DNA from: Gammaproteobacteria bacterium | Lineage (GTDB): Bacteria > Pseudomonadota > Gammaproteobacteria > Eutrophobiales > Eutrophobiaceae | Length of the DNA: 64,000 nt | Assembly (NCBI GenBank): GCA_003250975.1 | Contig: QKIY01000016.1 | Location: 84 to 64,083 of the forward strand | Direction of reading: 5' to 3' | Shown: in pieces, positions 1 to 52,772 of the stretch | Position numbering within the stretch: the first letter of the stretch is position 1 | Layout: every line of letters starts with the position of its first letter | Position numbers and translations under genes: made by a program | Notes under the pieces: generated by a model | Told to the model about the DNA's origin: nothing | The model's input: only the letters and a program-made list of their open reading frames with translations | The model's database searches: none

Positions 1-2336
1 CAAAATTTCTGCCACATCTGGCGATATTCTGTCTCTATTGAGCTTGCGATGCGCTTGGCATCGGTCAGGGGTGAAGCTTTCATACACTTACGCAATGACT
101 TCCGCAACTCTATCAGTCGCTCCTCGTTTGCAGCTAACTCAATAGCCTTTTGAATATACTCTTCAGGACTTTCTGCAATCAATTCTGATAATTTTGCAGA
201 ATGAAGCAGGCTTGTACCCACCCGAGAGAGATGAAGAGGACCTGCTAGCGTGATCACCGGTACACCCATCCAGAGTGCTTCGCAGGTTGTTGCAGTACCA
301 TTATAGGGAAAGGTATCTAGCGCTACGTCGAGTTCTTTATATAAGGAGAGGTGATCAAGTGTACTTGGTAACTTGTTATACAACTTGATTCTTTTTGGAT
401 CAATGCCATGAGTTTCAAATTCTTTAATTATGCGTTTGTCTCCATCTTCTAATCCCCTTGATTTTAACAGTAGTTTACTATTAGAAACTTTTTTTAGGAT
501 TGAGATCCAGTGGCGAATAATAGTCGGACTTACTTTGGCAAAATTGTTGAAAGAACCAAATGTGACATAGTCATTTTTCCTCATAGGCGAAGGACTGATT
601 TCAGGACAAATCGATGGCGGTTGGTAGCAAAGGAAGCCATTGGGTAGTCTAATCAGTTGTTCAGTATAATACTGATCAGTCTGTCCGGGTGGATCAGCCC
701 ACTCATCGGTGAAGCGATAGTCCATTTCATCAATACCTGTAGTATCTGGATAGCCAAGGTAGGTGATTTGGATTGGTGCCGGTTTGCGAGCAAACAGTGG
801 TATGCGATTATGTCCGGTATGACCTGATAGGTCGACCAGTATGTCTATCGCATTTGACTGAATCAACGTAGTCGCTTGTTCATCGTCTAAACCCCGGATA
901 TCATACCAGCCATCAGTATGATGCCGAATTCTCATAGTAGTATCGTCATTGTTTGGATTGTTGCTAAAACAAATCACTTCTAACATGTTAGAATCATGTG
1001 CGGCGAGCAAAGGTTCAAAGAAATAAGACACAGAATGAGTTCTGAGATCTCCTGACACATAGCCTATACGTAGACGCCTATTGGCATCAGTACTGCTTAT
1101 TTTAAAGGACCTGGTGTTTACTGCGGTTGAAGTATGGTATTGTGCCCAATGAATATGCTCTTGAAAAATTACTTTTGCATTTAAGGGTTCAGTATAGTGT
1201 AGGGAGAATAGCACATTACTGTGAATATCAGCTCTGGATGGGTCTAAATCCAATGCCCGTCGAAAAGACACAATAGCATCTTCAATGCGCCCTATATCTT
1301 TGAGTGCACATCCTAATATGTTATGGCTATCTGCTTTGCAATTGTCAATTTGGATTGATCGCTGACATGTATCAATTGCTTCATTAATTTGACCTAATGC
1401 CCGTAATACTCGGGCCAGTGTATTTAGGGCAAGAGCATTATTTGGAGCTAACTTTACAGCATGCCTAGCAATTTTAAGTGCCTCATCCAGTTTGCTGTTT
1501 TTCAGCAACGCAGATGCAAGTACTATGTATGCCTTGACATTGGTTGGATCAAGCTCAATGATTTTCCTCGCTGAATCAATTGCTTCTTTCAATTTACCGA
1601 GTGTAGTAAGAGCAGTAACCAAATGTATGTGGGCATTCAAAAAGTCAGATTTAAGTCTTATCGCACGCTTAAAGCACTCTGAAGCATATTCGTGTCTACC
1701 TTGGTTACCAAAAATAGTACCGAGACTATCGTAATAACGTGGATCTTCTGGAGATATCGTTAAAGCGCGATATATATGTTTGATAGCAGCAAGATGATCA
1801 CCAAGTTCCCCGGCGACCATTCCTAGTAAGTGCCATGCCTCAGCAAAACCTGGACGTATATCTAGGATTTCTAGACACGCCAATTCAGCCTTATCAAGTT
1901 CAGCAGCGTGAAAGTGTTCTATAGCCTTATTGTAAAGTTTGTCGCACGCACTGGTGAGTTTGTTTAAGACATCAATATCACCGGGTCGTAAATTAAGAGT
2001 TTCATTAAATGACTTAATTGCATCTATTATCTGACCTTCATCTAGTAAAGCATTACCTAAATTGAAATGAAATAATGCCTCGTGAGGATTAATCGCAATC
2101 GCTTGCTTAATTAGAGTTCTGGCGTCTTTGAAATTCTTTCGATTAGCCGCTACTACACCACTCAAGTGCAAAGCATCGACATTTTCTGGATCATGCTCCA
2201 GTATTTGATTAAAACATTTCATTGCTTCATCGAAACGGCCTGCCTTACTGTGCTCAATACCTTCATCAAGAAGCTTACGAGTCATACTAGCGTCATTGCT
2301 ATGATCGTTTAAATTAGGGTCATATTTTCGATTCAT
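1..2336 (-). CDS. TPR-containing O-linked glycosyltransferase, GT41 / SPINDLY-OGT family (3' end runs off the window, close to its C-terminus)
   Basis: Missing from the ORF track because it is open at the edge. Hand translation from ATG 2336 gives MNRKYDPNL..., a run of TPRs, then RLRIGYVSGDLRTHSVSYF, DILVDLSGHTGHNR, PAPIQITYLGYPDTTG, TFGSFNNFAK, LDTFPYNGTATTCEALWMGVPVITLAG and EYRQMWQKF at the edge; all are SPINDLY-family motifs. Confidence 0.93.
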   Translation of the reverse strand, partial: MNRKYDPNLNDHSNDASMTRKLLDEGIEHSKAGRFDEAMKCFNQILEHDPENVDALHLSGVVAANRKNFKDARTLIKQAIAINPHEALFHFNLGNALLDEGQIIDAIKSFNETLNLRPGDIDVLNKLTSACDKLYNKAIEHFHAAELDKAELACLEILDIRPGFAEAWHLLGMVAGELGDHLAAIKHIYRALTISPEDPRYYDSLGTIFGNQGRHEYASECFKRAIRLKSDFLNAHIHLVTALTTLGKLKEAIDSARKIIELDPTNVKAYIVLASALLKNSKLDEALKIARHAVKLAPNNALALNTLARVLRALGQINEAIDTCQRSIQIDNCKADSHNILGCALKDIGRIEDAIVSFRRALDLDPSRADIHSNVLFSLHYTEPLNAKVIFQEHIHWAQYHTSTAVNTRSFKISSTDANRRLRIGYVSGDLRTHSVSYFFEPLLAAHDSNMLEVICFSNNPNNDDTTMRIRHHTDGWYDIRGLDDEQATTLIQSNAIDILVDLSGHTGHNRIPLFARKPAPIQITYLGYPDTTGIDEMDYRFTDEWADPPGQTDQYYTEQLIRLPNGFLCYQPPSICPEISPSPMRKNDYVTFGSFNNFAKVSPTIIRHWISILKKVSNSKLLLKSRGLEDGDKRIIKEFETHGIDPKRIKLYNKLPSTLDHLSLYKELDVALDTFPYNGTATTCEALWMGVPVITLAGPLHLSRVGTSLLHSAKLSELIAESPEEYIQKAIELAANEERLIELRKSLRKCMKASPLTDAKRIASSIETEYRQMWQKF

Positions 2337-2454
2337 ATTCGTATAATCTAAATAAATAATTCTTATGTAAAAAATAAATTAAAATCACTTAACTAATAAT
2401 GAAAGGCCCCTCTTCATAAAATAATATAAGACTAATTCAGGATCGCTACTAAAT

Positions 2455-3096
2455 TTACGAATATCCTGCTTTACGCAAGATTTCACCGTTTATTTTCTCA
2501 AATATCTCAAATAGAGTATCTGTAAACTTAGATTTCCAGTCACTCTTTTTTCTAACCCACCGTCCATCACTTTTAACAATAGTCTCCCTGTCTGGAATAT
2601 TGTGGTTTATTGCTTTTAAGGATAGAAAATTACCAATACTATTTAGAGCACTATCAAGATCAACTATAATATCTTCGTATTTAAGTAAAAGAGTGTTATC
2701 CCGTCTCCAAGGATCCCAAGATTTAACATGATCCGCCCATGTTCCAAAGCGGTGTTGACCTTTGATGACTGCCTCTAAAGTTATCTTTCTGTGATAAAAT
2801 TCCCAAATACTAACGCAAGCAGCTCTGCCATCCCTAATCACATATATAGCAGAATTGTTATCTTTTGAGTGCTCGTGTGTTTTTAATAATGGGATACTGT
2901 TAGCATCGAATCTGATTTTATGATCTGGACCATGCTCTATATGTCCAACATACTCTTCTAATTCTATATTCCCGCCAAGGTCTTTTGGATAGATGCTTGC
3001 AGATCTAAGCCGAAAACATTGCCATAAAATCGTCCTAAGAAATGTATTACCGCTTCTTGGATAAGATGCAAGCCATATAATATCTGAGTTTCTCAT
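2455..3096 (-). CDS. PAPS-dependent sulfotransferase (Sulfotransfer_1 family)
   Basis: 5'-PSB motif WLASYPRSGNTFLR, 3'-PB motif YVIRDGRAACVS, and LLLKYEDI. Confidence 0.88.
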   Translation of the reverse strand: MRNSDIIWLASYPRSGNTFLRTILWQCFRLRSASIYPKDLGGNIELEEYVGHIEHGPDHKIRFDANSIPLLKTHEHSKDNNSAIYVIRDGRAACVSIWEFYHRKITLEAVIKGQHRFGTWADHVKSWDPWRRDNTLLLKYEDIIVDLDSALNSIGNFLSLKAINHNIPDRETIVKSDGRWVRKKSDWKSKFTDTLFEIFEKINGEILRKAGYS

Positions 3097-3552
3097 TTAC
3101 TGATTTTATAATTGAGCAATTTTTAGTTCATGTATGAACCATGGTGTTCTGAAATTATTTGATAAAATTTTAGAGTATTGAATTATCCTTGAGAAAATGA
3201 ACTGGTTCACATTTGATTTAATGATATCAGATAGTTAGAAAAATGACGTGTTTCACATTTGTAACAATTAATTTTGGTTAAAAATCTGAATATGTAATAA
3301 ACCTAAAATTTATGCATTTAAATCAGTAAGTTATATATACCTTCTTTGTGGGTATTGTATTATCTATTAAACACTTCTTGTGAGTGATTCAATGTAACTC
3401 ATTGATTAACTACTCTCTCCCCAGACGTTGATTTTCTAAACGGTAATAAAAGAATTTAGCTTCAATCAAATTTAATCGGGTAATGACATGGAATGTCAGG
3501 TTGCAGGGATAAGTAACCAGCCCGAATAATGTTCGAGAGAGAGGGCATTAAA

Positions 3553-5379
3553 ATGATAAACATGAACAGGGCTCGTGATGAGAGACGTGAGCTGTTATTC
3601 AGATTTTGGATTTCCACGGCAAGTATTCTGATTGCAATTGTTTCATTGGTACTGTTTGCTCCGGATACAGCCCTTGCTGCTGGTCAAAGTTCATTTCATA
3701 TCCCGGAAAAATTTGTCAAGAACCGAGTGCTTATCCAGCCTCGTGCAGGTATTACTGAAGAAAAATTCAAAGCGATTATTGAGCAGCATGGTGGTAACGA
3801 GACCTTCGTTATAGATGAATTGGACCTGCATATCATCGAACTCTCCGAGAATGCCAATACGGCGGCTATTGCTGAAGCCTTAAACCGGAATCCCAATATC
3901 AAGTTTGCCGAACTCGATGGCCAAGTGTCCCCCGAGCTTATTCCCGATGACCCGCAGTATCCGTATGGTTGGCACCTTCCACAAATTGGAGCGACGAGTG
4001 CATGGGATTCAGCACAGGGAGATGGTGTGATCATAGCCGTGCTGGATACAGGTGTGGATACCTCTCATCCGGATCTGCAAGGACAGACAGTGCCGGGATG
4101 GAATTTTTATGATGGCAATGATGATGTCACAGACGTACATGGGCATGGAACCGCCGTAGCAGGCACAGTCGCAGCCGCTACCAATAACAGCATTGGTGTT
4201 TCATCAGTGAGTTTCAATTCCAGGATCATGCCGATGCGTATTACTGATACGCAAGGTTATGGTTATTACAGTTTGATGGCGCAGGCGATTACGTCTGCTG
4301 CTGATAATAATGCAAAAGTTGCCAATATTAGTTTTTTAAATGTATCTAAAAGTTCTTCCGTCGATGCTGCTGCCCAGTATATGCGTGATAAAGGAGGCAT
4401 AGTTGTTATCTCTGCAGGTAATACTGGCAGCGAACTTACTGATAACCCACCACGCGATTCACTCGTAGTTGTCGCAGCAACAGATGGAAACGATCTTACG
4501 ACAAGCTTTTCCAGTTATGGTGATTTTGTTGATATCGCTGCACCAGGTGTCGGCCTTCGGACTACCTTATCAGGGGGCGGATATGGCGGCTTCAGTGGGA
4601 CATCTGCATCCAGTCCTGTCGTCGCAGGCGTTTATGCACTGGTAATGAGTGCTAATTCATCTCTACAGCCAGCCCAACTTGATAGCATAGTATTTGAGAA
4701 CGCATTGGATCTTGGCAATACAGGCTGGGATCCTCATTATGGCGCTGGGCGTGTCCAGGCGGATATGGCAGTGATTGCTGCAATCGATACCCCTGATACC
4801 GATTTTCTTTCACCAAGTGTATCTATTACTTCACCCATTGGTGGCGTCCTGAAAGGAGAGGTCCCTGTTTATACTTCGTCATCTGATAATATTGCCGTTA
4901 CGGAGGTAGAGCTTTACGTCAACGGCGAATTATACGCCTCTGAAACCTTCGACCCCTTTGAGTTCATTCTGGATACTTCGCAGTACACGGATGGCCAGAT
5001 GCAACTGGAGGCGCGCGCCTATGATGCCTCGGGTAATACAGGTTACTCAGAAATTGTTGATGTAACCGTTGCCAACAACAAAAATCCGCCCGAGGTCACT
5101 ATCCTCGACCCCACTGATGGCAGCGAAGTGAGTGGAACAGTGAATGTCAATGTCAGTGCAAATGACGATGTGGGTGTCACCAGGATCAGCCTGTATATTG
5201 ACGGCAAGGAAGTTATGGCGGTCAATGACAGCACGACGCTTTCCTATAGCTGGAGACCGAAACCTCTACGTGGCAAGGGAAAAAATTCGATACCAAACAG
5301 TACGATGATCTCGGCAACCGCAGAGGATATTGCCGGTAATTCATCAACTGCAGTTGTGAATGTGACCGTCACAAGGTAA
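3553..5379 (+). CDS. Secreted S8 subtilisin-like serine protease with two C-terminal Ig-like (Big) domains
   Basis: Catalytic triad motifs VLDTG, HGHGT and GTSAS; oxyanion SAGN; hydrophobic N-terminal signal ending ALA-A; two Ig-like repeats (SPSVSITSP...YDASGN, PPEVTILDP...EDIAGN). ATG 3553 chosen over the track start at 3529 because a purine-rich SD precedes it. Confidence 0.92.
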   Translation: MINMNRARDERRELLFRFWISTASILIAIVSLVLFAPDTALAAGQSSFHIPEKFVKNRVLIQPRAGITEEKFKAIIEQHGGNETFVIDELDLHIIELSENANTAAIAEALNRNPNIKFAELDGQVSPELIPDDPQYPYGWHLPQIGATSAWDSAQGDGVIIAVLDTGVDTSHPDLQGQTVPGWNFYDGNDDVTDVHGHGTAVAGTVAAATNNSIGVSSVSFNSRIMPMRITDTQGYGYYSLMAQAITSAADNNAKVANISFLNVSKSSSVDAAAQYMRDKGGIVVISAGNTGSELTDNPPRDSLVVVAATDGNDLTTSFSSYGDFVDIAAPGVGLRTTLSGGGYGGFSGTSASSPVVAGVYALVMSANSSLQPAQLDSIVFENALDLGNTGWDPHYGAGRVQADMAVIAAIDTPDTDFLSPSVSITSPIGGVLKGEVPVYTSSSDNIAVTEVELYVNGELYASETFDPFEFILDTSQYTDGQMQLEARAYDASGNTGYSEIVDVTVANNKNPPEVTILDPTDGSEVSGTVNVNVSANDDVGVTRISLYIDGKEVMAVNDSTTLSYSWRPKPLRGKGKNSIPNSTMISATAEDIAGNSSTAVVNVTVTR

Positions 5380-5429
5380 CCGCGATATCATTAGGGTCTA
5401 TATAATCTGGCCCGCCCCGTTTCTCTCTT

Positions 5430-5468
5430 CCTGCCCCGGACTGTATTCATCAGCCGGGGCAGGGTTTA
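5430..5468 (+). terminator. Intrinsic terminator after the subtilase gene
   Basis: Inverted repeat CCTGCCCCGG...CCGGGGCAGG followed by GTTTA. Confidence 0.6.
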
Positions 5469-5641
5469 TCAAATAAACACCTTATCAGCGATGCATTGTG
5501 TATCAAAATCTTTACACTTTTGTGGTAAAACCGCCAATATTTCCGATACTTAGTGTGGAACTTTTCACTATCCTATATACTATCTAGTCAAGAATAACCA
5601 CTGATAAATAGTCACGGTAAACGGTGGTGTAGAGAATATCG

Positions 5642-7378
5642 ATGGCACACAATATCCCGGTTTCTCGGCCCTCTTTGCGCGAGTTTACTTCACGCTTCCG
5701 GCCTTATTTTGTTTCAGCGGCTGTCTTCAGTCTGCTGGTCAATCTACTGATGCTGGTGCCGGCGCTTTTCATGATCCAGGTGTTTGACCGGGTGGTGACC
5801 AGCCGGAGTACCGAGACACTGATCATGTTGCTGGTAATAGCTATTGGTGCGCTGCTGTTTATGGCTTTCCTTGATGTGATCCGTGCGCGGCTTCTGACTG
5901 CTGCTGCGGTCTCACTGGAGAGGCATCTTGGCCCCCGGGTGCTAGCCGATATGATCCGCAATAACGCCGGTCCTGAGGGTGGAAAGAACCTGAATGGACT
6001 CCGTGATGTGAACTCGCTCCGGGGGTTTCTGACAGGCCCGGGAATTATCGCGTTGTTCGATTCCCCGTGGGTGCCGATCTATGTCCTGATTATCTACCTG
6101 TTCCATCCGATACTGGGTTGGGTAGCAATTGGCGGTGCATTTATCATGCTGACATTAGCGATTCTGAATGAAAAACTCTCGCGTCAGCCGCTGGAGGCCA
6201 TGCAGCTTGAATCTCGCAAAGCTGGACGCTTTGCTGATCAAAGTATTGCCAATGCCGAGGTCGCACGGACACTCGGTATGGTCGACAATTTGGCGCGTGG
6301 CTGGCAAGGGTTCAGTCGCAGCGGTCTGGAGAAGCAGCTGCAGGCAAGCCGCATCGGTAGCGTACTTACCAGTACTACGCGCCTCACGCGACAGTCCTTG
6401 CAGGTGATCATGCTGGCAACTGGGGCGTGGCTGGTTATCCATCAGGAGGCTACCACGGGTGTGATGATTGCCGCGACAATTTTACTAGGACGTGCGCTTG
6501 CGCCGGTGGAGATGGCGATCGCCGGTTGGAAGGCAATGGTGGAAGCACGCAGCGCTTACGGCCGGCTTGACGAGATGCTGTCTGAGGAGCCCCAGGATGA
6601 AGTGGTTACAGAGTTGCCCACCCCCAGAGGAGATCTGTCGGTAGAGCGGGTTGTGTTCGGATTCGCAGGGCAGGAACGCCCGGTCATAAAACAGGTGTCG
6701 TTTATTCTTCCCGCGGGTGAGTCACTTGCAATTGTAGGCCCTAGTGCAGCGGGCAAATCAACGCTTGCACGCCTGATTGTGGGATTGTGGAAACCCGTGA
6801 TGGGGACGGTACGCCTGGATGGCGCCGACATCGCTGCCTGGCCACGTGCACGCCTGGGCCCCTACATTGGTTATCTGCCGCAAAACGTGGAACTCTTTGC
6901 AGGTACGGTAAGCCAGAACATCGCGCGTATGGGTGAAGTCGATTCAGCAGCGGTGATCGATGCAGCCAAACGGGCCGATGCACATGAGATGATCCTGCGT
7001 CTGCCCCAGGGTTATGATACCTTCATCGGTGAAGGCGGTTCCTTCCTCTCTGCTGGCCAACGCCAGCGAGTAGCCCTTGCACGCGCCCTCTACGGCAAAC
7101 CCTGCCTGGTTGTGCTGGATGAGCCCAATTCTAATCTGGATGGCCAGGGAGAGGCAGCCCTTATCGAGGCAATCCGTCGTATGAAGGCCGCCGGGGTAAC
7201 CCTGATTGTTATTACACACCGCAGCACACTGCTCACTAACATGGACAAGATCCTGCTGTTGCGTGAAGGCGTTATTGAGAAAATCGGACCCGTATCCGAG
7301 CTGATGGCGGGTGCGAATACGCAGCCTGCGGAGACCCGGCCAAACAGAACGGGGCAGGCCAATAAGCTATATTATTAA
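5642..7378 (+). CDS. Type I secretion system ABC permease/ATPase, PrtD/AprD family
   Basis: N-terminal LVNLLMLVPALFMIQVFDRV, FDSPW motif, Walker A GPSAAGKST, signature LSAGQRQR, Walker B LVVLDEPNSNLD. No C39-like domain. Confidence 0.95.
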   Translation: MAHNIPVSRPSLREFTSRFRPYFVSAAVFSLLVNLLMLVPALFMIQVFDRVVTSRSTETLIMLLVIAIGALLFMAFLDVIRARLLTAAAVSLERHLGPRVLADMIRNNAGPEGGKNLNGLRDVNSLRGFLTGPGIIALFDSPWVPIYVLIIYLFHPILGWVAIGGAFIMLTLAILNEKLSRQPLEAMQLESRKAGRFADQSIANAEVARTLGMVDNLARGWQGFSRSGLEKQLQASRIGSVLTSTTRLTRQSLQVIMLATGAWLVIHQEATTGVMIAATILLGRALAPVEMAIAGWKAMVEARSAYGRLDEMLSEEPQDEVVTELPTPRGDLSVERVVFGFAGQERPVIKQVSFILPAGESLAIVGPSAAGKSTLARLIVGLWKPVMGTVRLDGADIAAWPRARLGPYIGYLPQNVELFAGTVSQNIARMGEVDSAAVIDAAKRADAHEMILRLPQGYDTFIGEGGSFLSAGQRQRVALARALYGKPCLVVLDEPNSNLDGQGEAALIEAIRRMKAAGVTLIVITHRSTLLTNMDKILLLREGVIEKIGPVSELMAGANTQPAETRPNRTGQANKLYY

Positions 7379-7404
7379 CGGATATTTAAACTAATCATAT
7401 AATT

Positions 7405-8871
7405 ATGTACGAGTCATTCTACAGATTCCGGGAAAAACCTTTTTCCCTGCTCCCTGACCCCGCGTTCCTTTACCTGGGGAGGCAACACAGTGCGGCGTAT
7501 ACCATGCTGGAGTACGGGATCATGCACCAGCTGGGAATCACTGTTATTACCGGTGAGATTGGATCAGGGAAGACGAGCCTCGTACGTCATCTGCTGAATC
7601 AACTTGATTCCAACTTAACGGTTGGTCTAATCAGTAATACGCACCGCTCACTGGGCGAACTCATGCCCTGGGTTGCTCTCGCATTTGAACTTCCCCACCG
7701 TAACAGGTCCAGGGTTGAATTATATGAAGACTTTGTTCAGTTCTTGATTAAGGAGTATGCCAAGGGAAACAGGACGGTGCTGATCATAGATGAGGCCCAG
7801 AATATGGATACCGAGATGCTGGAAGAATTACGCATGCTGTCCAATATCAATACAGACAAGGACCAGGTCCTGCAATTAATCCTTCTGGGTCAGCCTGAAT
7901 TGCGAGAGAAGCTGCGACAACGAGAACTTGTACAATTTGCGCAACGCGTTGCAGCCAATTATCATCTGGAACCGTTAACTACAGAAGAAACGTGCAATTA
8001 TATTGGTCACCGTATCAGTGTTGCGGGTGGTGACCCTTCCCTGTTTGATGCCCCTGCCTGTGAATTGATCCATGAGCACACTCGCGGCATACCGAGACTC
8101 ATTAATACACTATGCGATATGGCGCTGGTTTATGCTTTTTCGGAACAGAAAGAAAAGATTGATGCAAAGATCCTGGCAGAGGTAGTGAGTGATAAGGTGA
8201 ATGGAGGAGTCTTCCCGTCCGAAGAAAGTGACCAACAAGAGGTGAATGAATTCTGGCCACGAGATCCTCAATTGGCCAAGAGCCTGAATAATATTGCCAA
8301 TGTATATCGCTCACAGGGAAAATTTGATGAGGCCGAAGAAAATTATAAGCGCGCTGTGGGAATTCTGGAAAACAGTGTAGGAGCACAACACCCCAATCTG
8401 GCCACCGTATTAAATAACCTGGCTGTGCTTTATCGCAAGCAACGCAAATTCGATGAAGCGGAATCACTCTATCGCCGTGTTTTGAACATTGTCGAAAAGG
8501 CCCTGGGACCGGAACATAGGGCTGTCGCCATGGGGCTCAATAATCTGGCAGTGCTTTATCAGAAGCAGGGCAAGTATAGCGAGGCCGAACCCCTGCAAAA
8601 GCGTGCGTTGGCGATTTTGGAAAAAGTTTTTGGCCCCGACCATCAAGATATCGTTATTCATCTTAAGAACCTTGCAAAACTGCAACGCTATATGGGCAGG
8701 GCTGATGAGGCTGCAGATTACGAGGCGCGGGCTGTCGAGATTGAGAACAGCAAAATCAGGCATAGCCTGAATCCGACAGCAACGCTTTCACAGTCAAATG
8801 AAGCCCCCTCATCAGAAGCGGCCGCTGCACATAAGGGTCTTCACCCTGTGGCGTCTCCAGATAAAAAGTAA
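7405..8871 (+). CDS. ExeA-like AAA_22 ATPase fused to C-terminal TPR repeats
   Basis: MYESFYRFREKPFSLLPDPAFLY start, Walker A GEIGSGKT, Walker B LIIDEAQN, LILLGQPEL, TRGIPRLINTLCD; then four 42-aa TPRs. Confidence 0.9.
   Translation: MYESFYRFREKPFSLLPDPAFLYLGRQHSAAYTMLEYGIMHQLGITVITGEIGSGKTSLVRHLLNQLDSNLTVGLISNTHRSLGELMPWVALAFELPHRNRSRVELYEDFVQFLIKEYAKGNRTVLIIDEAQNMDTEMLEELRMLSNINTDKDQVLQLILLGQPELREKLRQRELVQFAQRVAANYHLEPLTTEETCNYIGHRISVAGGDPSLFDAPACELIHEHTRGIPRLINTLCDMALVYAFSEQKEKIDAKILAEVVSDKVNGGVFPSEESDQQEVNEFWPRDPQLAKSLNNIANVYRSQGKFDEAEENYKRAVGILENSVGAQHPNLATVLNNLAVLYRKQRKFDEAESLYRRVLNIVEKALGPEHRAVAMGLNNLAVLYQKQGKYSEAEPLQKRALAILEKVFGPDHQDIVIHLKNLAKLQRYMGRADEAADYEARAVEIENSKIRHSLNPTATLSQSNEAPSSEAAAAHKGLHPVASPDKK
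8263..8766 (+). repeat. Four tandem 42-aa kinesin-light-chain-type TPR repeats (protein level)
   Basis: DPQLAKSLNNIANVYRSQGKFDEAE, HPNLATVLNNLAVLYRKQRKFDEAE, HRAVAMGLNNLAVLYQKQGKYSEAE, HQDIVIHLKNLAKLQRYMGRADEAA at 42-aa spacing. Confidence 0.9.
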
Positions 8872-8935
8872 CCTCACATATGACATTACCCGACAGTGTT
8901 ATCGCGGCGCATCCATTGACTGGTAAATTGAACAA

Positions 8936-10471
8936 GTGGAACGGATAAAAAAAGCATTGGAATTGGCCCGGCAGGAAAGGCAGGCAAAAGAGGATGATAT
9001 TTCGGCGCCGCAATCGCCGGAAGTAAAAGATGTTGCTGAAACAATGGAGGCGAACGAAACTTCCAGGGATTTTATTCTTGAGGAGCCGGATGATGATTCC
9101 GTGACAGGGGAGATGGGATCAGTACAGCAAAATGCTGCTGCCACCCCACCCGAAGATATATACAGTCCATCGTCTGATATAGAACGTGCCGAAAGCCCCT
9201 GGAAGTTAATCGTCACCGGCTTGCTGGGTGTCATATTACTTATCCTTGTTATCAGTGCCTGGGTTGTCATCGCACCCATTTCAGGCGCTGTCATTGCGCC
9301 GGGCTATGTCAAAGTGGATATGGATCGTAAGACACTACAACATCAGGAAGGGGGTATCGTCGGAGAAATCCTTATCCGGGATGGTAGCAAGGTCACGCCC
9401 GGACAAACGCTCATACTGCTTAAAGATGTGCGTGTTGATGCCAGTAATGAACTGGTACGTACCCAACTAGATGCCGCACTCGCCCAGGCTGCGCGCCTGT
9501 CTGCAGAGCAATCCGGCGAAGACAAAATAACATTTCCAGCAGAACTCACTGAACGCAGTGAGGACCCGCGGGTCGAAGAACTGCTCAAGCGTGAAACAAC
9601 AGTTTTCGGAGTGCGGCGCGAGGCGCTCTCGAACCAGCTTGCATTGATAAAACGCCAGGTGCGTGATACGGAGAAGGAAGTACAGGCACGGTTGGCCCAA
9701 CTCAAGGCCGACGAGGAGACACTCAAGCACCACCGTGAGGAGCTTGAAACCAACAAGGCACTAATCGGCGAGGGATATGTTTCCAAGACGCGTCTTATTG
9801 AGCTGGAGCGTGCCGGTGCGGAATATGAGTCCAGAAATGCAGAAAATCGCGCGGAACTGGCCAGCGCGCAACAGAAAATATCGGATCTGGAGTTGCGTGC
9901 CGAGACCTTGAGGAGTGAATTCCAGCAAGAGGCAACCAATGCACTACGCGAGACCACCGCAACGATCTTCGATCTTAGGGAACGGTTACGACCGGCACAG
10001 GATGCCGAGCAGCGGCAGCGCATCACGGCGCCGATTGCTGGCGAAATTGTGAATCTCAAAATTACCAGTGTAGGCGCGGTGATTGCGCCGCGCGAACCCA
10101 TCCTGGATATCGTACCCGAGAACCCCGATCTGCTGGTAGAGGCGCAAGTGCGCCCCGAGGATATTAGCAATGTCTATACCGATTCCCTTGCAGATGTTCG
10201 GCTTACAGCATTCAAGCGGCGCTGGACACCGATCGTTGAGGGGAAAGTCATTTATATATCGGCCGACCGGCTGATTGACCCGAAAAATGACACGCCTTAT
10301 TACACGGTGCATGTGCGTGTACCGCCCGAAGAGCTGAAGGAGGCGGGTGATCTCAAGTTGCAGGCAGGCATGCCCGCGGAGGTCTTTATCAAGACCGCGC
10401 CACGCAATGCCCTGCAATACCTGCTTGATCCGATCCTGGGCTTCCTGAATCGCTCGTTAAGGGAGCAATAA
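8936..10471 (+). CDS. HlyD/PrtE-family type I secretion membrane fusion protein with an ~85-aa N-terminal extension
   Basis: TM helix, APISGAVIAPG, KTLQHQEGGIV, long coiled coil, ITAPIAGEIV, LQAGMPAEVFI, RNALQYLLDPI. GTG start. Confidence 0.93.
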   Translation: MERIKKALELARQERQAKEDDISAPQSPEVKDVAETMEANETSRDFILEEPDDDSVTGEMGSVQQNAAATPPEDIYSPSSDIERAESPWKLIVTGLLGVILLILVISAWVVIAPISGAVIAPGYVKVDMDRKTLQHQEGGIVGEILIRDGSKVTPGQTLILLKDVRVDASNELVRTQLDAALAQAARLSAEQSGEDKITFPAELTERSEDPRVEELLKRETTVFGVRREALSNQLALIKRQVRDTEKEVQARLAQLKADEETLKHHREELETNKALIGEGYVSKTRLIELERAGAEYESRNAENRAELASAQQKISDLELRAETLRSEFQQEATNALRETTATIFDLRERLRPAQDAEQRQRITAPIAGEIVNLKITSVGAVIAPREPILDIVPENPDLLVEAQVRPEDISNVYTDSLADVRLTAFKRRWTPIVEGKVIYISADRLIDPKNDTPYYTVHVRVPPEELKEAGDLKLQAGMPAEVFIKTAPRNALQYLLDPILGFLNRSLREQ

Positions 10472-10548
10472 TCGTTAACGATTTTTCCTCTTTATCTAGC
10501 GCCAGGAATTCACCCACATAGGTGGGCTTGTGTGCAGTTTACAGATGC

Positions 10549-11274
10549 TCAACGGAGTTTCTGTACCAAGCGTTCAATGTTATCCAGGGAACTCAGGTGG
10601 GCGTAAATCAATTCCATATGGTTTGATTTAACCAGTTCGGATAGCGTGTCGGGTTCAATGGTTTTCAGGCGTTCGCGATTAACGCCCATAAACCCCCTCA
10701 GGGCCAGTTTCTTGCCGTCCTTAAATTCCGCCTTGGCTTGCATGGGCTCGAGAAGGCCTAATTCGTTGATTTTATTACAAAAAGAACTGGTAAACTGAAT
10801 ATGCCCCTGGTACTCCTGGAGGAATTTAATGGCCTGCTGCAGGAGTTCCGATTCCTTGCCGTCATCATCAAACAGTTTTTTGCCCTTGTTTTTGGAATTG
10901 AAACCTTCGTAACCTTCATCGATGCAGACAGCAAATTGGGAGCCGCCTTGAGTTGGGCCAGATGCTAGGATAAACGGGTATCTTCGGATGTAGGCCGGAA
11001 TATAATTTGCCAGCCATTCCCCTTTTTTCCCGACAAAAAGGTTCTCATGGTCTTTAAGGCCCAGTAACGCCACCGGGAAGATCTCGTCGCCCGGCGTTTT
11101 TGCAAATACTATGGGATATTCCTTGGATGCCTTGAGAAACTCAACGGCTGCAATATATACGCTATTGGTTTCTTTGGTGTGTTTGAAATTATCTATCGCC
11201 GAGAGCGACAGATTGCCGTGTTTTTCCTTATTGAGCGGCACGACATTTTTATAAAATAATGGCTGTGTTGTCAT
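10549..11274 (-). CDS. sapC: SapC family protein
   Basis: EFLKASKEYPIVF, FPVALLGL, W..NYIPAYIRRYPFIL, LFDDDGKESELL, MELIYAHLSSL match the SapC family pattern as I recall it. Confidence 0.85.
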   Translation of the reverse strand: MTTQPLFYKNVVPLNKEKHGNLSLSAIDNFKHTKETNSVYIAAVEFLKASKEYPIVFAKTPGDEIFPVALLGLKDHENLFVGKKGEWLANYIPAYIRRYPFILASGPTQGGSQFAVCIDEGYEGFNSKNKGKKLFDDDGKESELLQQAIKFLQEYQGHIQFTSSFCNKINELGLLEPMQAKAEFKDGKKLALRGFMGVNRERLKTIEPDTLSELVKSNHMELIYAHLSSLDNIERLVQKLR

Positions 11275-11556
11275 AAATTTATGCCCAATGACTGATGATT
11301 AAGATCTCGAATAACAATAAACCTATTTTATCAGGTTTGCTTTATTATTTTTAGCGCCCTGGTCAATTCATGTCTTGATTAGTGCAATTTCATTCTTTGA
11401 TAGCGGCCGCCGTCTCTGGATATAAAGCATGGGGGATTTATGCTGGTTTGACAATAGCATTTCCGTGTGCAAGCGGATAAATTTTATTCAAAATGGATGA
11501 AATATGCGATCAAGTGGATTACTATTAGCGGGTCGATGTAAAGGATTAGCGAGGCG

Positions 11557-12642
11557 ATGAAAATGAAGTGCATAAGTTCGCGGTTGTCTAAATCCCTTCT
11601 CTTGCTGCTATTACTTCAGGCCAGCGGTACCACGTCAGCATTTACGCTAATCGAGTTATTTCCTGGCGATGAACCCAGCAACACGGTAACCGATAATGAA
11701 AGCCTGGAAACCCAGACTCAGGCTGTAACCTCTACCATAGGCGGACATGTACAGGATATCCTGCGCGGGCGGTTGACCCGATCCCGTGTTGCTTCAAATG
11801 AACTTATGGACATGTCAGGTATCAATGCAGGTGATAGTACGATCAATATCGGTGTCTGGACCAGTGGCACCTATACTAATTATGAAGATGATTTCGTCTC
11901 GACTGCATTTGAAGGTGATACCCTGCTAGGCTTGGTGGGGTTCGATATCTCGCCAACCAGAAATTTAATCATCGGTGTGGCGTTAGGATATGAAGATACG
12001 GATATTACGACAACATTCAACTCTGGTACCCAGGAGTCAGAGGGTTATACGGTGGCCCCTTATTTTGGATTAGTATTGAATAACTACTTCAGCATCGATG
12101 GCTCCTTCGGGTATACGGACATTGATACGGACCAGTCCAGATTGACACAGGTTTTTGTGCCCGGAGTAAATGCTGTATTAACAAGTTCCCCTTCGTCCGA
12201 GCGCTGGTTTGCAACCTTGAACCTGAACGCTGTTACCTATCTCGGTAACTGGGTCTTGGGTGGCCGCGGCGGTGCCCTCTATGCCAAAAATGAACGGGAA
12301 GCCTTTACCGAAACAAGCAGTACTCCATTGGTAGTGCCAACACCGGTCGCTGAAAGTGAATCCAAATTAAAGCTGTGGTACCTTGGCGCCGATGTCGCCT
12401 ATGGTATGGGTTCGTTCGAACCCTTTGCCAATGCCGCCTATGAACGCGAGTTTGATTCTACGGAACTCACCTTTACCGGCGGATCGCAACCATCGAATGA
12501 TGAAGACAGCTACTTGGTTGGCGCAGGAATTCGTTATTTCGGGACCGATGGAATCAGCGCGACCGTGGAATGGAACAAGCGACTCGGCAGGGACGATTTT
12601 GACGAAGACAGATTTTCCCTGGTGCTCCGGGCCGATTTCTAA
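11557..12642 (+). CDS. Autotransporter beta-barrel protein with a very short passenger
   Basis: Signal peptide, ~60-aa linker ending GINAGD, then alternating beta-strands (GVWTSGTYT, LIIGVALGYE, GYTVAPYFG, FSIDGSFGY, FEPFANAAY) and C-terminal Phe (LRADF). Confidence 0.8.
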   Translation: MKMKCISSRLSKSLLLLLLLQASGTTSAFTLIELFPGDEPSNTVTDNESLETQTQAVTSTIGGHVQDILRGRLTRSRVASNELMDMSGINAGDSTINIGVWTSGTYTNYEDDFVSTAFEGDTLLGLVGFDISPTRNLIIGVALGYEDTDITTTFNSGTQESEGYTVAPYFGLVLNNYFSIDGSFGYTDIDTDQSRLTQVFVPGVNAVLTSSPSSERWFATLNLNAVTYLGNWVLGGRGGALYAKNEREAFTETSSTPLVVPTPVAESESKLKLWYLGADVAYGMGSFEPFANAAYEREFDSTELTFTGGSQPSNDEDSYLVGAGIRYFGTDGISATVEWNKRLGRDDFDEDRFSLVLRADF

Positions 12643-12671
12643 TCAGTTATTGTAATTCTGATTATATCTGG

Positions 12672-14222
12672 TTACTTTTCCTTCATTAATTTCTCGTACT
12701 GGCGGATGACATTCGCTGCCAGGTATTCTACCGGTGCGTAATCATCGGTGAAAACCGGCACATCCGCCACCAATCCAGGGTCAAGCTGAAGCTCATGTTC
12801 CGCGACGTTCTTGAGTAGAGGATAGGCAAATCCGGTTTCCGCGATCTGATCTTCCGTGATTCGGATCTCTTTTCCAAGTCCGACAAAGATGAAATTCTGT
12901 AGTGAATCACTTTCCGGGTTGATGGTTGCGAACAGGAAAACCTGTGGAAACACGGATTGCATGGTTTTATATACGGAAAAGATCACGGATCGTGTTTTTG
13001 CGGAAAGGCTGCCAAAATAGTTGGCAATAAAGACACCATCGGTATTCAGCCTGTTAAGTACTAGGTCGAAAAATTCATGGGTCGTAAATTGCATGGGAAC
13101 AGCGGCAAAAGACCGGTAAACGTCCATGAAGATGAGGTCATAGGTTTCATTTGTCTCAAATAAAAACCGCCGTCCGTCCATTACATAATTATTCAACCGG
13201 GGGTCATTAGGCAGACCAAAATATACTCTGGAAAGATACAGCAAGCTCGGTTCTATCTCGGCTACATCGACATGGGCTGCAGGATGGTCCCTGAGAATCG
13301 CCTTTGGTACGGAATATGCGCCGCCACCGATGGCCAGGGCGCGATTCAGTTCGGGGACAAACAGGCGGAAGAGGTCAAAGTATTTCGTATAATCAAAGGC
13401 CATACGGCCATCATCCAGGTACATCCCGCTGTTGAGGTTCTTGTCTTGGAACAATAACCTTACCGGCCTGTTATTGTAGTTGCTATCCCGGACTGTAATT
13501 TGCTCATACAGTCCTTCAGCCTGATAAATAATCGTCTCGTCCCTTGTTGGTGAAAGCAAATTTATTATCAGAGACAGGCAGGCAATGATAGCAAGCAATG
13601 TAATAGCGACGGTTTTTTTACGACTGGTGTTCAGGAGCAGTCCGATGCCGCCAAGGAGAAGCAGGCAATATCCCACGCCTATAACAATATAGCTTACCCC
13701 CCAACGTGGGATCAGGAAAAAACCGGCACTAAGGCTTCCGGCAATACTCCCCAGGGTAGACCAGAAAAAAACCAGGCCGGAGACACGCCCAATGCCAAGC
13801 CCAGGTTCGTTTACATGAAGCAGTTTGATGGCATATGGCGAAAGGGTGCCGAGCAAGAGAGCTGGAACTAGAAAAAGTAGTACTGATGTGAGTAATGGTC
13901 CATGGATCATGGAAAGCCTGTAGGCCAGAAATGGCAACAGGGTTTCGTTGAGTAGTTGTAAAATGAGCACGGCAACGCCACCCACGCTGATTAGTCCGAA
14001 AAAGAAGCTGGTATAGGGTTTCCGGTCAGCAAGCCTTCCTCCCAGATAATAGCCAAGGCTCAGGGCGGTCAGGATAATCCCTATTACGCTTGAGAAGGTG
14101 AAAATGGAATTACCGAAATAGGGAGCGAGGATCCGTGTAGCAACGATTTCGATAATCAGGATAGCCATGCCCGTGAGGAAGACAGAAACCAGGATACAAG
14201 CAGAGCGGCAAGGATAGGACAT
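12672..14222 (-). CDS. Fused membrane domain / spermidine synthase-like SAM-binding protein
   Basis: About 7 TM helices (GMAILIIEIVATRILAPYFGNSIF), then ALAIGGGAY, DVAEIEP, DGRRF, DLIFMDVY, FTDDYAPVE. Confidence 0.85.
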   Translation of the reverse strand: MSYPCRSACILVSVFLTGMAILIIEIVATRILAPYFGNSIFTFSSVIGIILTALSLGYYLGGRLADRKPYTSFFFGLISVGGVAVLILQLLNETLLPFLAYRLSMIHGPLLTSVLLFLVPALLLGTLSPYAIKLLHVNEPGLGIGRVSGLVFFWSTLGSIAGSLSAGFFLIPRWGVSYIVIGVGYCLLLLGGIGLLLNTSRKKTVAITLLAIIACLSLIINLLSPTRDETIIYQAEGLYEQITVRDSNYNNRPVRLLFQDKNLNSGMYLDDGRMAFDYTKYFDLFRLFVPELNRALAIGGGAYSVPKAILRDHPAAHVDVAEIEPSLLYLSRVYFGLPNDPRLNNYVMDGRRFLFETNETYDLIFMDVYRSFAAVPMQFTTHEFFDLVLNRLNTDGVFIANYFGSLSAKTRSVIFSVYKTMQSVFPQVFLFATINPESDSLQNFIFVGLGKEIRITEDQIAETGFAYPLLKNVAEHELQLDPGLVADVPVFTDDYAPVEYLAANVIRQYEKLMKEK

Positions 14223-14257
14223 AGGTCTTATTGCAGGTGTGCAGTTTCCGGTTTCAA

Positions 14258-15040
14258 TTAAAAATTATCTTTCATCTGCCTGATTCTGGCGAAGACATCT
14301 GTAAGAGGAGCATTCTGCATATGCAGACTGGCCTGTATGTCCCCGCTCATTGGGCGCAGAAACGGGTTTGTCTTTTTTTCCATTCCTAGGGTTGTAGGTA
14401 TCGTTGGCACACCTTTTTTTCTCAGCCTGTCTACCTCGGACATCCTGCTGATCAAATCACGGTTATGGGGTTCGACCGTCAGTGCAAAACGGCCATTTTC
14501 CTGGGTATACTCATGCGCACAATACAGCTTGGTGTCGTCCGGCCATTGCATAATCTTTTGCAGGGAATTCCACATCTGTTCCGCAGTCCCTTCGAACAAT
14601 CGCCCACACCCCATGGCAAACAGGGTATCGCCGACAAAGGCAAGGTTTTCTGATTCGAAATAATAAACAATATGGCCGGCCGTATGCCCCGGAGTGTCAT
14701 AGATGCGTGCAGTGTAGTTTCCGAACTGAAACGTATCCCCGTCACCCACTTCGATATCAATACCCGGGATCCTGCCAGACTCAGCTCGGGGTCCAATAAT
14801 GAGGCAGCCGGTCTTTTTCTTCAATTCCAGGTTGCCGCCAGCATGGTCCCAGTGATGGTGCGTATTCAGGATGTGGGTAAGCTGCCATTTTTTTTCGGCC
14901 AAGGCATTTTCGATGGCTGAAACTTCTGGTGTGTCAACCACGGCAGTGAGTTTATTTTCCGAATCATGCAGCAGAAAGCCATAATTATCTGACAAGCATG
15001 GAAACATATGAATTTTCAGCCGGGGTGATGTTGTTCCCAT
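14258..15040 (-). CDS. gloB: Hydroxyacylglutathione hydrolase (glyoxalase II)
   Basis: LSDNYGFL, THHHWDHAGG, TPGHTAGH, GDTLFAMGCGR, CAHEYT, EKKTNPFLR. Start uncertain (TTG 15061 or ATG 15040). Confidence 0.93.
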   Translation of the reverse strand: MGTTSPRLKIHMFPCLSDNYGFLLHDSENKLTAVVDTPEVSAIENALAEKKWQLTHILNTHHHWDHAGGNLELKKKTGCLIIGPRAESGRIPGIDIEVGDGDTFQFGNYTARIYDTPGHTAGHIVYYFESENLAFVGDTLFAMGCGRLFEGTAEQMWNSLQKIMQWPDDTKLYCAHEYTQENGRFALTVEPHNRDLISRMSEVDRLRKKGVPTIPTTLGMEKKTNPFLRPMSGDIQASLHMQNAPLTDVFARIRQMKDNF

Positions 15041-15140
15041 ATTAATTTCCGGGTTGGTCAATCTGAAAATACAATTACATTATATCCTGATATCAAGGAA
15101 TATTCAGAATAAGGGAAAAATATTTGTTAATATCAGCTCT

Positions 15141-16175
15141 ATGTCAAGATACGGAGAAAACAGATACTTTTGGCAGTCTTACAATGACGAGGATTTACTC
15201 GATCTCCGCTTTTGTGATTTGAAACTGAAGATTGCAAATGCGCCTTTACAGGAGCGAATTGAACAACTTTATGATGAATTGAAAGGGCGGGATATTCGAT
15301 TCCGGCCGCATTGTTGGTTGTCGGAGGAATGGTTTTCACCCGATGGTGTGCCCGGTATCGCGATACCTTTCTATATGGCCCACTCGCGGCTTGCAAAGCT
15401 GGAATACCGTCAGATGTTCGAGATTGAAGGCGGTAACACCCGCTGGTGCATGCAGCTGCTCAGGCATGAGGCAGGTCACGCAATTAATACCGCCTATTGT
15501 CTTCACCGAAGGAAGCGCTGGAGACAATTATTTGGTGCGTTTAACAAACCCTATCCGACACATTACACCCCGAACCCAAAAAGCAGGAATTATGTTATTC
15601 ATCTGGACTGGTGGTATGCACAAAGTCATCCCGCTGAGGATTTCGCTGAGACCTTCTCGGTGTGGTTAAGGAACAGGAATAAATGGCAAAAGCAGTATAA
15701 AGGATGGCCCGCCATGAAAAAGCTGGAATACATGGATGAATTAATGGCATCAATCAGTAAAAAGCCTGCACTTAGAAGATCAAGGGAGCGTGTTGAACCT
15801 CTATCTACCAACAGAAAAACATTAAGGGAACATTATGAATCAAAACGTGCTTTTTATGGCGTAAATGTTCCTGACGTATATGATAGTGAGTTAAGAAGAT
15901 TGTTCAGAGACCAACCGGACAACAACGGCAAGAGGCGAACTGCTTCTGCGTTTTTGCAAAAATACAGAAGAGAGTTATCCCAATTGTGCGCCCGTGGTAT
16001 AGGTGAACCACCTTATATAATCGCCCAGGTAATACACGATATGATTATAAGATGCCGTGAACTGAAGCTTTATGTCAATCTCCCTGATGATGAAATGAAA
16101 ATTGAGGTTGCCATCTTTGTCAGCATGCAAACACTGAATTACTTTAACAAAGTCCGGCACAGGGTGCCCGTATGA
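15141..16175 (+). CDS. Putative zinc-binding metallopeptidase (Peptidase_Mx-like zincin)
   Basis: HExxH motif LRHEAGHA, plus WYAQSHPAEDFAETF and CWLSEEWFSPDGVPGIAIPFY. ATG 15141 preferred over the track start at 15054. Confidence 0.8.
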   Translation: MSRYGENRYFWQSYNDEDLLDLRFCDLKLKIANAPLQERIEQLYDELKGRDIRFRPHCWLSEEWFSPDGVPGIAIPFYMAHSRLAKLEYRQMFEIEGGNTRWCMQLLRHEAGHAINTAYCLHRRKRWRQLFGAFNKPYPTHYTPNPKSRNYVIHLDWWYAQSHPAEDFAETFSVWLRNRNKWQKQYKGWPAMKKLEYMDELMASISKKPALRRSRERVEPLSTNRKTLREHYESKRAFYGVNVPDVYDSELRRLFRDQPDNNGKRRTASAFLQKYRRELSQLCARGIGEPPYIIAQVIHDMIIRCRELKLYVNLPDDEMKIEVAIFVSMQTLNYFNKVRHRVPV

Positions 16176-52770: not shown

Positions 52771-52772
52771 TT

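Follow-up and report, generated by a model that had tools for sequence, protein, structure and literature searches.

An ExeA-like ATPase gene lies between the transporter and adaptor genes of a rare type I secretion locus in uncultured Gammaproteobacteria, and the adaptor carries a GspB-type N-terminal helix

The usual view of type I secretion is that of a minimal machine with three parts, in which the ATP-binding cassette (ABC) transporter is the only source of power. The RtxBDE system that exports the Vibrio MARTX toxins is an "atypical" type I secretion system (T1SS) with two ATPases, the second of which is another ABC transporter subunit. In type II secretion, the cytoplasmic ATPase domain of ExeA is required for the complex with its membrane partner ExeB, and ExeB serves as the scaffold for the outer-membrane secretin (PMC4098917); gspB usually shares a locus with gspA, and the periplasmic part is missing in some GspA proteins (PMC9239104). 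Here we describe a locus in which a gene for an ExeA-like cytoplasmic ATPase is embedded between the ABC transporter gene and the membrane fusion protein (MFP) gene of a T1SS. The locus lies in a 64,000-nucleotide stretch of a Gammaproteobacteria bacterium assembly (GCA_003250975.1, contig QKIY01000016.1, positions 84 to 64,083), and this whole stretch is called the window below. As in RtxBDE, a second ATPase gene sits in a T1SS operon, but that of the window encodes a soluble AAA+ protein of another superfamily branch. With moderate confidence, we lean towards reading the locus as a PrtD/AprE-type T1SS with an acquired accessory AAA+ ATPase, which would act as a GspA/GspB-like switch docked on the MFP.

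Open reading frame (ORF) calls and domain searches gave the following order along the window: a GT41 glycosyltransferase with tetratricopeptide repeats (TPR) and a sulfotransferase on the minus strand; a subtilase, the ABC transporter, the ATPase-TPR protein and the MFP on the plus strand; a SapC-family protein on the minus strand; and an autotransporter on the plus strand. These calls reproduced every gene identity, strand and gap of an initial annotation of this DNA, including the 26 bp between the ABC and ATPase genes and the 64 bp between the ATPase and MFP genes. The features of the secretion locus itself are as follows.

3529-5379, plus strand: S8 subtilase with two Big_7 domains (Pfam)
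5430-5463, plus strand: RNA hairpin, terminator- or attenuator-like, in the subtilase-ABC interval (fold energy)
5642-7378, plus strand: PrtD-type ABC permease/ATPase, 578 aa (TIGR01842, 669.3 bits against a cutoff of 510.15)
7405-8871, plus strand: AAA_22 ATPase with kinesin light chain (KLC)-type TPR, whole gene (TIGR03015, 298.4 bits against a cutoff of 324.5)
7405-8214, plus strand: AAA+ domain of the ATPase, residues 1-270 (AAA_22, E = 2.3e-27)
8266-8766, plus strand: KLC-type TPR domain of the ATPase, residues 288-454 (TPR_12, E = 8e-57)
8936-10471, plus strand: HlyD/AprE-type MFP, whole gene (TIGR01843, 346.6 bits against a cutoff of 208.65)
8936-8983, plus strand: N-terminal helix of the MFP, proposed docking peptide (conserved in the MFPs of the clade)
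8984-9199, plus strand: linker of the MFP, residues 17-88 (variable in the clade)
9200-10471, plus strand: canonical body of the MFP, transmembrane helix and periplasmic domains (TIGR01843 from residue 97)

By these scores the ABC transporter and the MFP belong with PrtDEF, AprDEF and LipBCD. The best solved relative of the MFP was LipC (5nen, E = 8e-61), and the ABC transporter, which has no C39 peptidase domain, was 74-75% identical to that of a canonical T1SS (L014; loci are labelled L### and proteins P####). In L014 the ABC gene is followed directly by a gene for an MFP of the 444-aa type, with an RTX cargo gene downstream and neither an ATPase nor a subtilase gene, which bears out the premise of the initial annotation that PrtD/PrtE-type genes are normally adjacent. 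The window differs from such systems in its extra non-ABC ATPase gene, an 88-residue cytoplasmic extension of the MFP, a conserved Sec-dependent subtilase, and the lack of an outer-membrane factor gene in the locus.

Relatives were sought by exact-protein look-ups and by scanning GTDB with each species represented by a single genome. The order subtilase, ABC, ATPase-TPR, MFP was found in seven lineages, namely the window (plus a second contig, L001), L002/L015, L004-6, L007/8, L012/13, L016 and L017, drawn from independent assemblies of JGI, ENA, NCBI and Logan. Spacing was nearly constant across these loci (about 26-29 bp between ABC and ATPase, 53-64 bp between ATPase and MFP), and identity to the window was 79-85% for the ABC transporter, 70-79% for the AAA+ domain and 78-83% for the body of the MFP, with the full-length ATPase at about 67-75%. 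Reading frames were intact in all T1SS-type lineages. Pairwise dN/dS was 0.08-0.12 for the ATPase, 0.08-0.09 for the ABC transporter and 0.11-0.12 for the MFP, with dS saturated. An assembly artefact or a decaying, functionless insertion might be suspected in sequences that come only from metagenomes, but it is effectively refuted, since four data sources yield the same order in no fewer than seven lineages, with intact frames and a dN/dS of about 0.1; misassembly and a decaying passenger gene are thereby excluded. The ABC-ATPase-MFP order that the initial annotation had proposed to look for in other genomes is thus not unique to this assembly, and the ATPase embedded in it is a genuine, conserved, non-ABC cytoplasmic ATPase.

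The arrangement is nonetheless a known machine in a rare and lineage-specific form, carried by a small set of uncultured Gammaproteobacteria of marine type. A search of 5.8 billion protein clusters found only eight full-length relatives of the ATPase-TPR protein at 67% identity or above, one of them in a polysaccharide locus, and the T1SS form was present in only two species of metagenome-assembled genome (MAG) among 185,579 species genomes. A scan of metagenome contigs with an alignment of the ATPase gave, among the matches listed, ATPase-only relatives alone and no additional T1SS-type loci; the GspB-like neighbors described below came to light through it. One MAG (Gammaproteobacteria bacterium CS3-C001) holds two ABC-ATPaseTPR-MFP copies on separate contigs (L016 and L017), with a sapC gene beside one copy only.

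Relative to the closest canonical MFPs (444 aa, 65-71% identical), the sole difference in the MFP of the window was some 88 extra N-terminal residues, starting MERIKKALELAR, and the earlier description of this protein as extended or chimeric therefore stands. The N-terminus of canonical 444-aa MFPs is a brief cytoplasmic stub (MANALRDLVLPALDVERA..PWPLI). Ahead of this stub, the MFPs of the clade carry about 75-90 further residues, a conserved helix first and then a variable linker rich in acidic residues and proline. The helix sequence, (V/M)ERIKKALELARQERQ, follows the clade pattern (M/V)-[ED]-R-I-K-K-A-[IL]-[ED]-L-A-R-x-E-R and was kept in all 10 clade MFPs, and conservation in the linker columns was below 20%. 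The transmembrane helix spans residues 89-113 (bases 9200-9274). A homology search with the MFP listed 120 matches from 114 proteins, 113 of which had no extension; the other, P0127, was a clade MFP with a truncated start call. Gene callers start the MFP 3' of the helix at L001 2112 and L012 10001, giving proteins of 502 aa and 467 aa, so the helix would escape automated annotation. The true start is likely a conserved GTG, three to four codons past an in-frame stop.

The start of the extension was near-identical to the N-termini of bacterial tyrosine kinase-like (BY-kinase-like) proteins encoded beside related ATPases. Such proteins begin MERIKKALELARQSR in L021 and MERIKKAIELARLERGATRES in L177, compared with MERIKKAIELARLQRQAARES in the MFP P0122, and they likewise have a variable linker between the helix and the kinase-like domain. 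The gene downstream of more distant ExeA-like ATPases (about 40% identical) encodes a single-pass protein starting MS[FYI]IL[DE]AL[KR]K[SA]E..ER. Because these proteins have a C-terminal Pfam T2SSB domain (E = 1e-16 to 1e-19), we identify them as GspB/ExeB homologues. The MFP, BY-kinase-like and GspB-like N-termini share I4, A7, L8, A/S11, E14 and R15. A single 12-residue pattern, made to cover all three, matched 91 times in 10,039 ORFs from 160 loci, and all but one of these matches were N-termini of ATPase-adjacent genes (72 BY-kinase-like, 15 GspB-like and 3 MFP); the 15 GspB-like carriers lay directly downstream of ExeA-like ATPases. No Pfam model covered the helix in the N-terminal 100 residues of the MFP or in 72 residues of a BY-kinase-like protein, T2SSB describing only the C-terminal periplasmic domain of GspB, and T2SSB itself had no match in the MFP even at E values up to 10.

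The ATPase begins with an AAA+ domain of the ExeA/GspA and TIGR03015 type, with a Walker A motif (GEIGSGKTS, residues 50-58) and a Walker B motif (LIIDEAQ, residues 126-132) whose P-loop and DEAQ residues were invariant in nine of nine sequences. TIGR03015, the "XrtA/PEP-CTERM system-associated ATPase," was its best NCBIfam match, yet just below the curated cutoff. An AlphaFold2 model of the protein (mean predicted local distance difference test score, 85.8; mostly 80-97 in the AAA+ domain, with the lowest 10-residue block at 77) placed the AAA+ domain at residues 1-270, a disordered linker at 271-285, eight TPR helices at 288-454 and a disordered tail at 458-488. Foldseek likened the AAA+ domain to ORC/Cdc6, MuB and TnsC. 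The TPR domain matched KLC1 in the PDB at E = 2e-53, was 47-49% identical to KLC1/2 in Foldseek alignments, and was 67-79% conserved within the T1SS clade. Neither Pfam nor the model revealed a C-terminal transmembrane segment or a peptidoglycan-binding domain (PF01471) in the ATPase, whose C-terminal half is made up of the KLC-type TPR and the disordered tail.

Outside the clade, the nearest AAA+ domains were 57-67% identical and had no TPR. About 65 of the 77 genome loci of ATPase relatives contained a string of genes for Poly_export, an outer-membrane protein, a Wzz-like protein and a BY-kinase-like (ParA/MinD-type) protein, with the ATPase last. Proteins of these donor-type polysaccharide loci best matched the XrtA/PEP-CTERM families TIGR03027, 03016, 03007 and 03018, somewhat under the equivalog cutoffs. 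No Wzz, Poly_export or BY-kinase-like gene was found in the window. In one polysaccharide-type locus, L018, the ATPase carries a single KLC-type unit, and in L177 a Wzz-BY-kinase-ATPase string ends in an ATPase with the full TPR that is 67% identical to that of the window over its whole length. In neighbor-joining trees L018 split off first and L177 next, leaving a single T1SS clade (72 of 100 bootstraps for T1SS plus L177), a placement which implies that the fusion of ATPase and TPR is older than its capture by the T1SS. The MshM/MshN pair of MSHA pilus loci, an ExeA-like ATPase and a TPR protein, may be a parallel to this fusion. By sequence, the ATPase nests within the ATPases of PEP-CTERM-like polysaccharide loci and originated there. 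The window thus resembles XrtA/PEP-CTERM exopolysaccharide loci, with their TIGR03015 ATPase and TIGR03018 BY-kinase-like protein, in its AAA+ domain, its helix and the TPR fusion of L177; it differs in having no Wzz, Poly_export, outer-membrane or kinase-like genes of that set and in the position of the ATPase gene between those for a T1SS ABC transporter and MFP. Many polysaccharide-locus ATPases (P0119, P0033, P0046, P0057 and others) have a conserved receiver-like module in their C-terminal 150 residues (LRIAIAAESELLRIYLSRLL...VDVLLVELD...PVLFNDSL), from which we conclude that the family swaps C-terminal modules, whether receiver-like, TPR, or a transmembrane segment with a periplasmic domain. 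A literature search found no published function for TIGR03015 proteins or for the ATPase of PEP-CTERM-type loci, which goes unmentioned in the main text of Haft 2006, and found no description of an ExeA-like ATPase in a T1SS operon or of the N-terminal helix.

Our preferred reading takes as its base machine a PrtD/AprE-type ABC exporter and MFP, with TolC presumably encoded elsewhere. The ATPase-TPR protein would have been captured from a PEP-CTERM-like polysaccharide-export locus, where a BY-kinase-like protein is its neighbor, and the roughly 16-residue helix of that partner would have come along with it and would now cap the cytoplasmic end of the MFP, a long disordered linker joining the two. 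There the helix may serve as a docking site for the AAA+ domain, a proposal prompted by the occurrence of the same pattern at the start of GspB/ExeB, the known membrane partner of ExeA/GspA. The docked ATPase could then act as an ATP-dependent oligomerizing switch or clustering factor that governs how the MFP/ABC/TolC complex assembles or works, comparable to the scaffolding of the type II secretin by GspA-GspB. Both docking and a switch role are suggested by the ExeA-ExeB analogy together with the cotransfer of ATPase and helix, and an oligomerizing switch fits the fold likeness of the AAA+ domain to ORC/Cdc6, MuB and TnsC, which are themselves ATP-dependent oligomerizing switches.

The initial annotation's comparison with ExeA proved more apt than was thought, in that the MFP carries an N-terminal helix of the GspB/ExeB and BY-kinase type. 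In both systems a gene for an AAA_22-type cytoplasmic ATPase lies immediately upstream of a gene for a single-pass inner-membrane protein, so that the pair of ATPase and then helix-transmembrane protein would mirror exeA and then exeB. In both, the membrane protein starts with the same helix pattern and its periplasmic part reaches the outer-membrane channel. In the ExeA-ExeB case, the complex requires the ATPase domain (PMC4098917). The window ATPase differs from GspA in having a KLC-type TPR instead of a transmembrane segment and peptidoglycan-binding domain, its partner is an HlyD-type MFP rather than a T2SSB protein, and the outer-membrane partner would be TolC rather than a secretin.

Several points weigh against this proposal. 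The binding of the AAA+ domain to the helix is itself a prediction, drawn by analogy. The helix pattern was written after the sequences had been seen, so its count is partly circular and measures specificity rather than serving as an independent test. The helix-bearing gene lies upstream of the ATPase gene in polysaccharide loci and downstream of it in T1SS and gspAB loci, and bootstrap support for the T1SS clade without L177 was only 40 of 100. The named sources of the T1SS-type loci are uncultured Gammaproteobacteria throughout, and the system is known from metagenomes only. A search of the window for RTX repeats, acidic proteins and D-x-hydrophobic C-termini found no cargo gene. A Pfam scan of 50 of the 53 window ORFs of at least 120 aa, with three ORFs of 126-209 aa outside the scan, found no OEP/TolC match; the absence of this gene does not exclude membership in the T1SS family, because the factor is commonly encoded elsewhere. 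The helix could also have other roles, such as membrane binding or substrate-triggered recruitment of TolC. The latter has been described for the N-terminal amphipathic helix of Escherichia coli HlyD.

That precedent also favors an alternative in which the ATPase-TPR protein is a STAND-like regulator that acts elsewhere and merely travels with the T1SS genes, the helix of the MFP being intrinsic to the T1SS and unrelated to the ATPase. The combination of AAA_22 and TPR does resemble STAND NTPases (a weak nSTAND1 match was obtained), and polysaccharide-locus relatives bear other C-terminal modules, one of them receiver-like. Set against this are the joint occurrence of helix and ATPase in three machine contexts and the lack of the helix in canonical MFPs, the best match of both helix and ATPase to the same donor-type locus, and the conserved slot of the ATPase gene between ABC and MFP with its near-constant gaps. 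We consider such a hitch-hiking regulator unlikely.

We then turned to the genes that surround this core. The subtilase consists of a Sec signal peptide (recognized by reading of the N-terminus, ...SLVLFAPDTALAAGQ), a fervidolysin-like pro-domain, a catalytic domain and two Big_7 domains; its best NCBIfam match was a T7SS mycosin model, under the cutoff. It lies 5' of the ABC gene in each related locus whose contig extends far enough. The subtilase was considered as a type I cargo and rejected, because it has a Sec signal peptide; it also has no acidic, hydrophobic C-terminus. Following its stop codon, the hairpin at 5430-5463 had a folding energy of -29.3 kcal/mol (z = -6.7 against shuffled sequences) and went unreported by a terminator consensus scan because its U-tract is weak. 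So strong a hairpin suggests that ABC, ATPase and MFP form a transcription unit separate from the subtilase. On the plus strand between these three genes, the consensus scan found no intrinsic terminators above chance-level intragenic matches, which is weak negative evidence for cotranscription. A promoter-like match at 7375-7403 (TTAACG, 17 nt, TATAAT; 10 of 12 positions), ending one base 5' of the ATPase start codon, may be a chance occurrence in an AT-rich spacer or an internal promoter. A second adjacency of ATPase and subtilase was seen in L085 (9968-13724, a Chromatiales MAG), where a gene for an 836-aa S8 subtilase comes directly after that of an ATPase-only relative and no BY-kinase-like gene is close by.

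Directly 5' of the subtilase, a large cargo-type gene is present in L002, L004-6, L007 and L012. The L002 product is an RTX protein with GGxGxD repeats, whose C-terminus matches the serralysin C-terminal region and ends ...DFIL; that of L004-7 is an acidic 1160-aa DUF11/CLIPPER protein without a signal peptide, ending ...DAFWDVVL; and that of L012 is an acidic repeat protein ending ...DALDINIV. Judged by sequence, these upstream proteins show the classical features of PrtD-type substrates, being acidic or RTX-rich, free of signal peptides and D-x-hydrophobic at their ends (DFIL, DVVL, DINIV). In the relatives, the cargo of the T1SS would then be the product of this upstream gene, a large surface protein that is acidic or of RTX type, and the Sec-exported subtilase probably processes it outside the cytoplasm and may release it. 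Between the RTX cargo gene and the subtilase gene of L002, the closest MAG, lies a gene for a tubulin-tyrosine-ligase-like (TTL-like) ATP-grasp protein (PF03133, 393 aa; 4134-5315), which could be a modifier of the cargo.

The initial annotation had offered the ATPase as a cargo chaperone, and in a cargo-targeting form of this idea the KLC-type TPR would bind the acidic C-terminal signal or unfolded repeats of the cargo, which the AAA+ domain would deliver to the MFP and ABC transporter. KLC TPR domains do bind short acidic peptides (as titles of PDB entries indicate), the C-termini of the relatives' cargo proteins are acidic, with a Trp flanked by Asp in two (...PDAFWDVVL), and the TPR is well conserved within the clade. 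The proposal is weakened by the presence of the ATPase-TPR fusion in Wzz/BY-kinase loci without a T1SS (the full TPR in L177, one unit in L018), which implies that the TPR was not acquired for T1SS cargo. Moreover, the cargo is wholly different between lineages (RTX, DUF11/CLIPPER or of no known type), and ORC/MuB-type AAA+ domains do not act as unfoldases. We therefore regard a cargo-targeting chaperone as improbable, slightly more so than a hitch-hiking regulator.

The remaining features near the T1SS genes are the following.

From 2336 past base 1 (truncated at the edge of the window), minus strand: GT41 glycosyltransferase with TPR (Glyco_transf_41, E = 2e-58)
2455-3096, minus strand: sulfotransferase, 213 aa (Sulfotransfer_1, E = 1.5e-19)
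10549-11274, minus strand: SapC-family protein (PF07277, 247.6 bits)
11557-12642, plus strand: autotransporter beta-domain protein, 361 aa (signal peptide and barrel)

A gene for a SapC-family protein, which has no signal peptide, follows the MFP gene convergently in four of the seven lineages (the window, L002/L015, L007 and L016) and was missing after the MFP in L004-6, L012-13 and L017. The proposed link between SapC and the T1SS thus receives support from the same convergent placement in four lineages and is weakened by its absence from the other three; SapC was probably ancestral to the clade yet dispensable as a neighbor. In the sapCDEF locus of Campylobacter fetus, a SapC-family gene likewise adjoins a T1SS ABC/MFP pair. 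The SapC gene of the window differs in being convergent rather than co-oriented and in its absence from three of seven lineages, and no S-layer protein gene was seen in the window.

The 10-kb surroundings of the six remaining T1SS-type lineages and of some 150 ATPase loci contained no homologue of the GT41 protein, the sulfotransferase or the autotransporter, which leads us to conclude that these three are not parts of the system. A low-GC block at 2001-4000 (36%, compared with 48-54% in neighboring sequence) spans the sulfotransferase gene and the 5' part of the GT41 gene, and the two are probably an unrelated, horizontally acquired block. The block occupies the place where relatives carry the cargo gene. 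The GT41 protein is an OGT-like TPR fusion that scored 49.6 bits with the NGTferase model against a cutoff of 1000; with no GT41 in related T1SS loci, the suggested link of an HMW1C-type glycosyltransferase to secretion falls. The sulfotransferase belongs to a widespread 214-aa family that resembles cytosolic small-molecule SULTs and not tyrosyl-protein sulfotransferases, and a member of this family lies among housekeeping genes in L176. The autotransporter protein consists of a signal peptide, about 70 further residues and a barrel at residues 100-339.

We also considered a parallel with RaxST-RaxAB, in which a sulfotransferase adjoins a T1SS. It was rejected: the sulfotransferase of the window is Sulfotransfer_1/SULT-like, lies on the opposite strand and does not accompany the T1SS in other lineages, and no C39 domain is present in the ABC transporter.

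These results bear on the broader interpretation of the initial annotation, in which GT41, sulfotransferase, subtilase, T1SS, ATPase, SapC and autotransporter would together export a glycosylated or sulfated surface protein. In its favor, these genes are neighbors in the window, SapC recurs in four of seven lineages, and the TTL-like protein of L002 is a different putative modifying enzyme placed between cargo and subtilase. In an unrelated MAG, L175, a sulfotransferase homologue, a TPR-sulfotransferase fusion and a TPR-GT41 protein are encoded within 8 kb (10001-18141), beside an ATPase-containing polysaccharide locus and an IS1595 transposase. Against so large a system stand the lack of GT41, sulfotransferase and autotransporter homologues at the other T1SS-type loci, the opposite strand and low GC content of the first two, the SULT-like character of the sulfotransferase and the occurrence of its family among housekeeping genes, and the failure to find a cargo gene in the window. 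We think it very improbable, and the idea of a T1SS for a glycosylated or sulfated protein has no support left once GT41 and sulfotransferase fall away. What endures of the earlier interpretation is a conserved T1SS variant with a second, non-ABC ATPase and a chimeric MFP; its glycosyltransferase, sulfotransferase and autotransporter parts do not.

The rest of the window holds ordinary chromosomal housekeeping genes (RecG, SpoT, BirA, CoaX, UbiA/UbiC and tRNA-Thr). Among other features, 12672-14222 and 15054-17200 contain a fused MFS/spermidine-synthase gene (NF037959, 249 bits) near an overlapping pair of Peptidase_Mx-like and D-Ala-D-Ala-ligase-like ATP-grasp genes. Genes for an FHA-domain protein (22446-23324) and a VWA+FHA protein (25621-27255) lie on either side of aminopeptidase and rhodanese genes, and genes for DUF2339 (905 aa, a membrane protein) and DUF3999 (454 aa) adjoin at 50053-54137, 2 bp apart.

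Finally, we propose tentatively, and with less conviction than the reading of the locus itself, that the helix M-x-x-I-x-x-A-L-x-x-A/S-x-x-E-R is a portable tag through which AAA+ ATPases of the ExeA/GspA family dock on three or more unrelated machines that span the envelope. The tag would sit on the GspB scaffold in the case of type II and pilus secretins, on the BY-kinase-like subunit in that of Wzz-type polysaccharide exporters and, in this clade, on the HlyD adaptor of the T1SS. The practical value is modest, since the organisms are uncultured and heterologous reconstitution would be needed. The proposal does offer a testable function for the uncharacterized ATPase of PEP-CTERM-type loci and for the short cytoplasmic end of GspB, for which a literature search found no published role. 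Type I secretion would gain a new layer of control or assembly if a second ATPase, a soluble AAA+ protein, is tethered to its adaptor. The locus would also represent a natural experiment: a stretch of some 16 residues has apparently switched an ATPase from one envelope machine to another. If the docking-tag proposal is true, the window records a recent retargeting of the ATPase through transplantation of its tag, and the ExeA/GspA family would serve generally, in an ATP-dependent way, to assemble or activate complexes that span the envelope.

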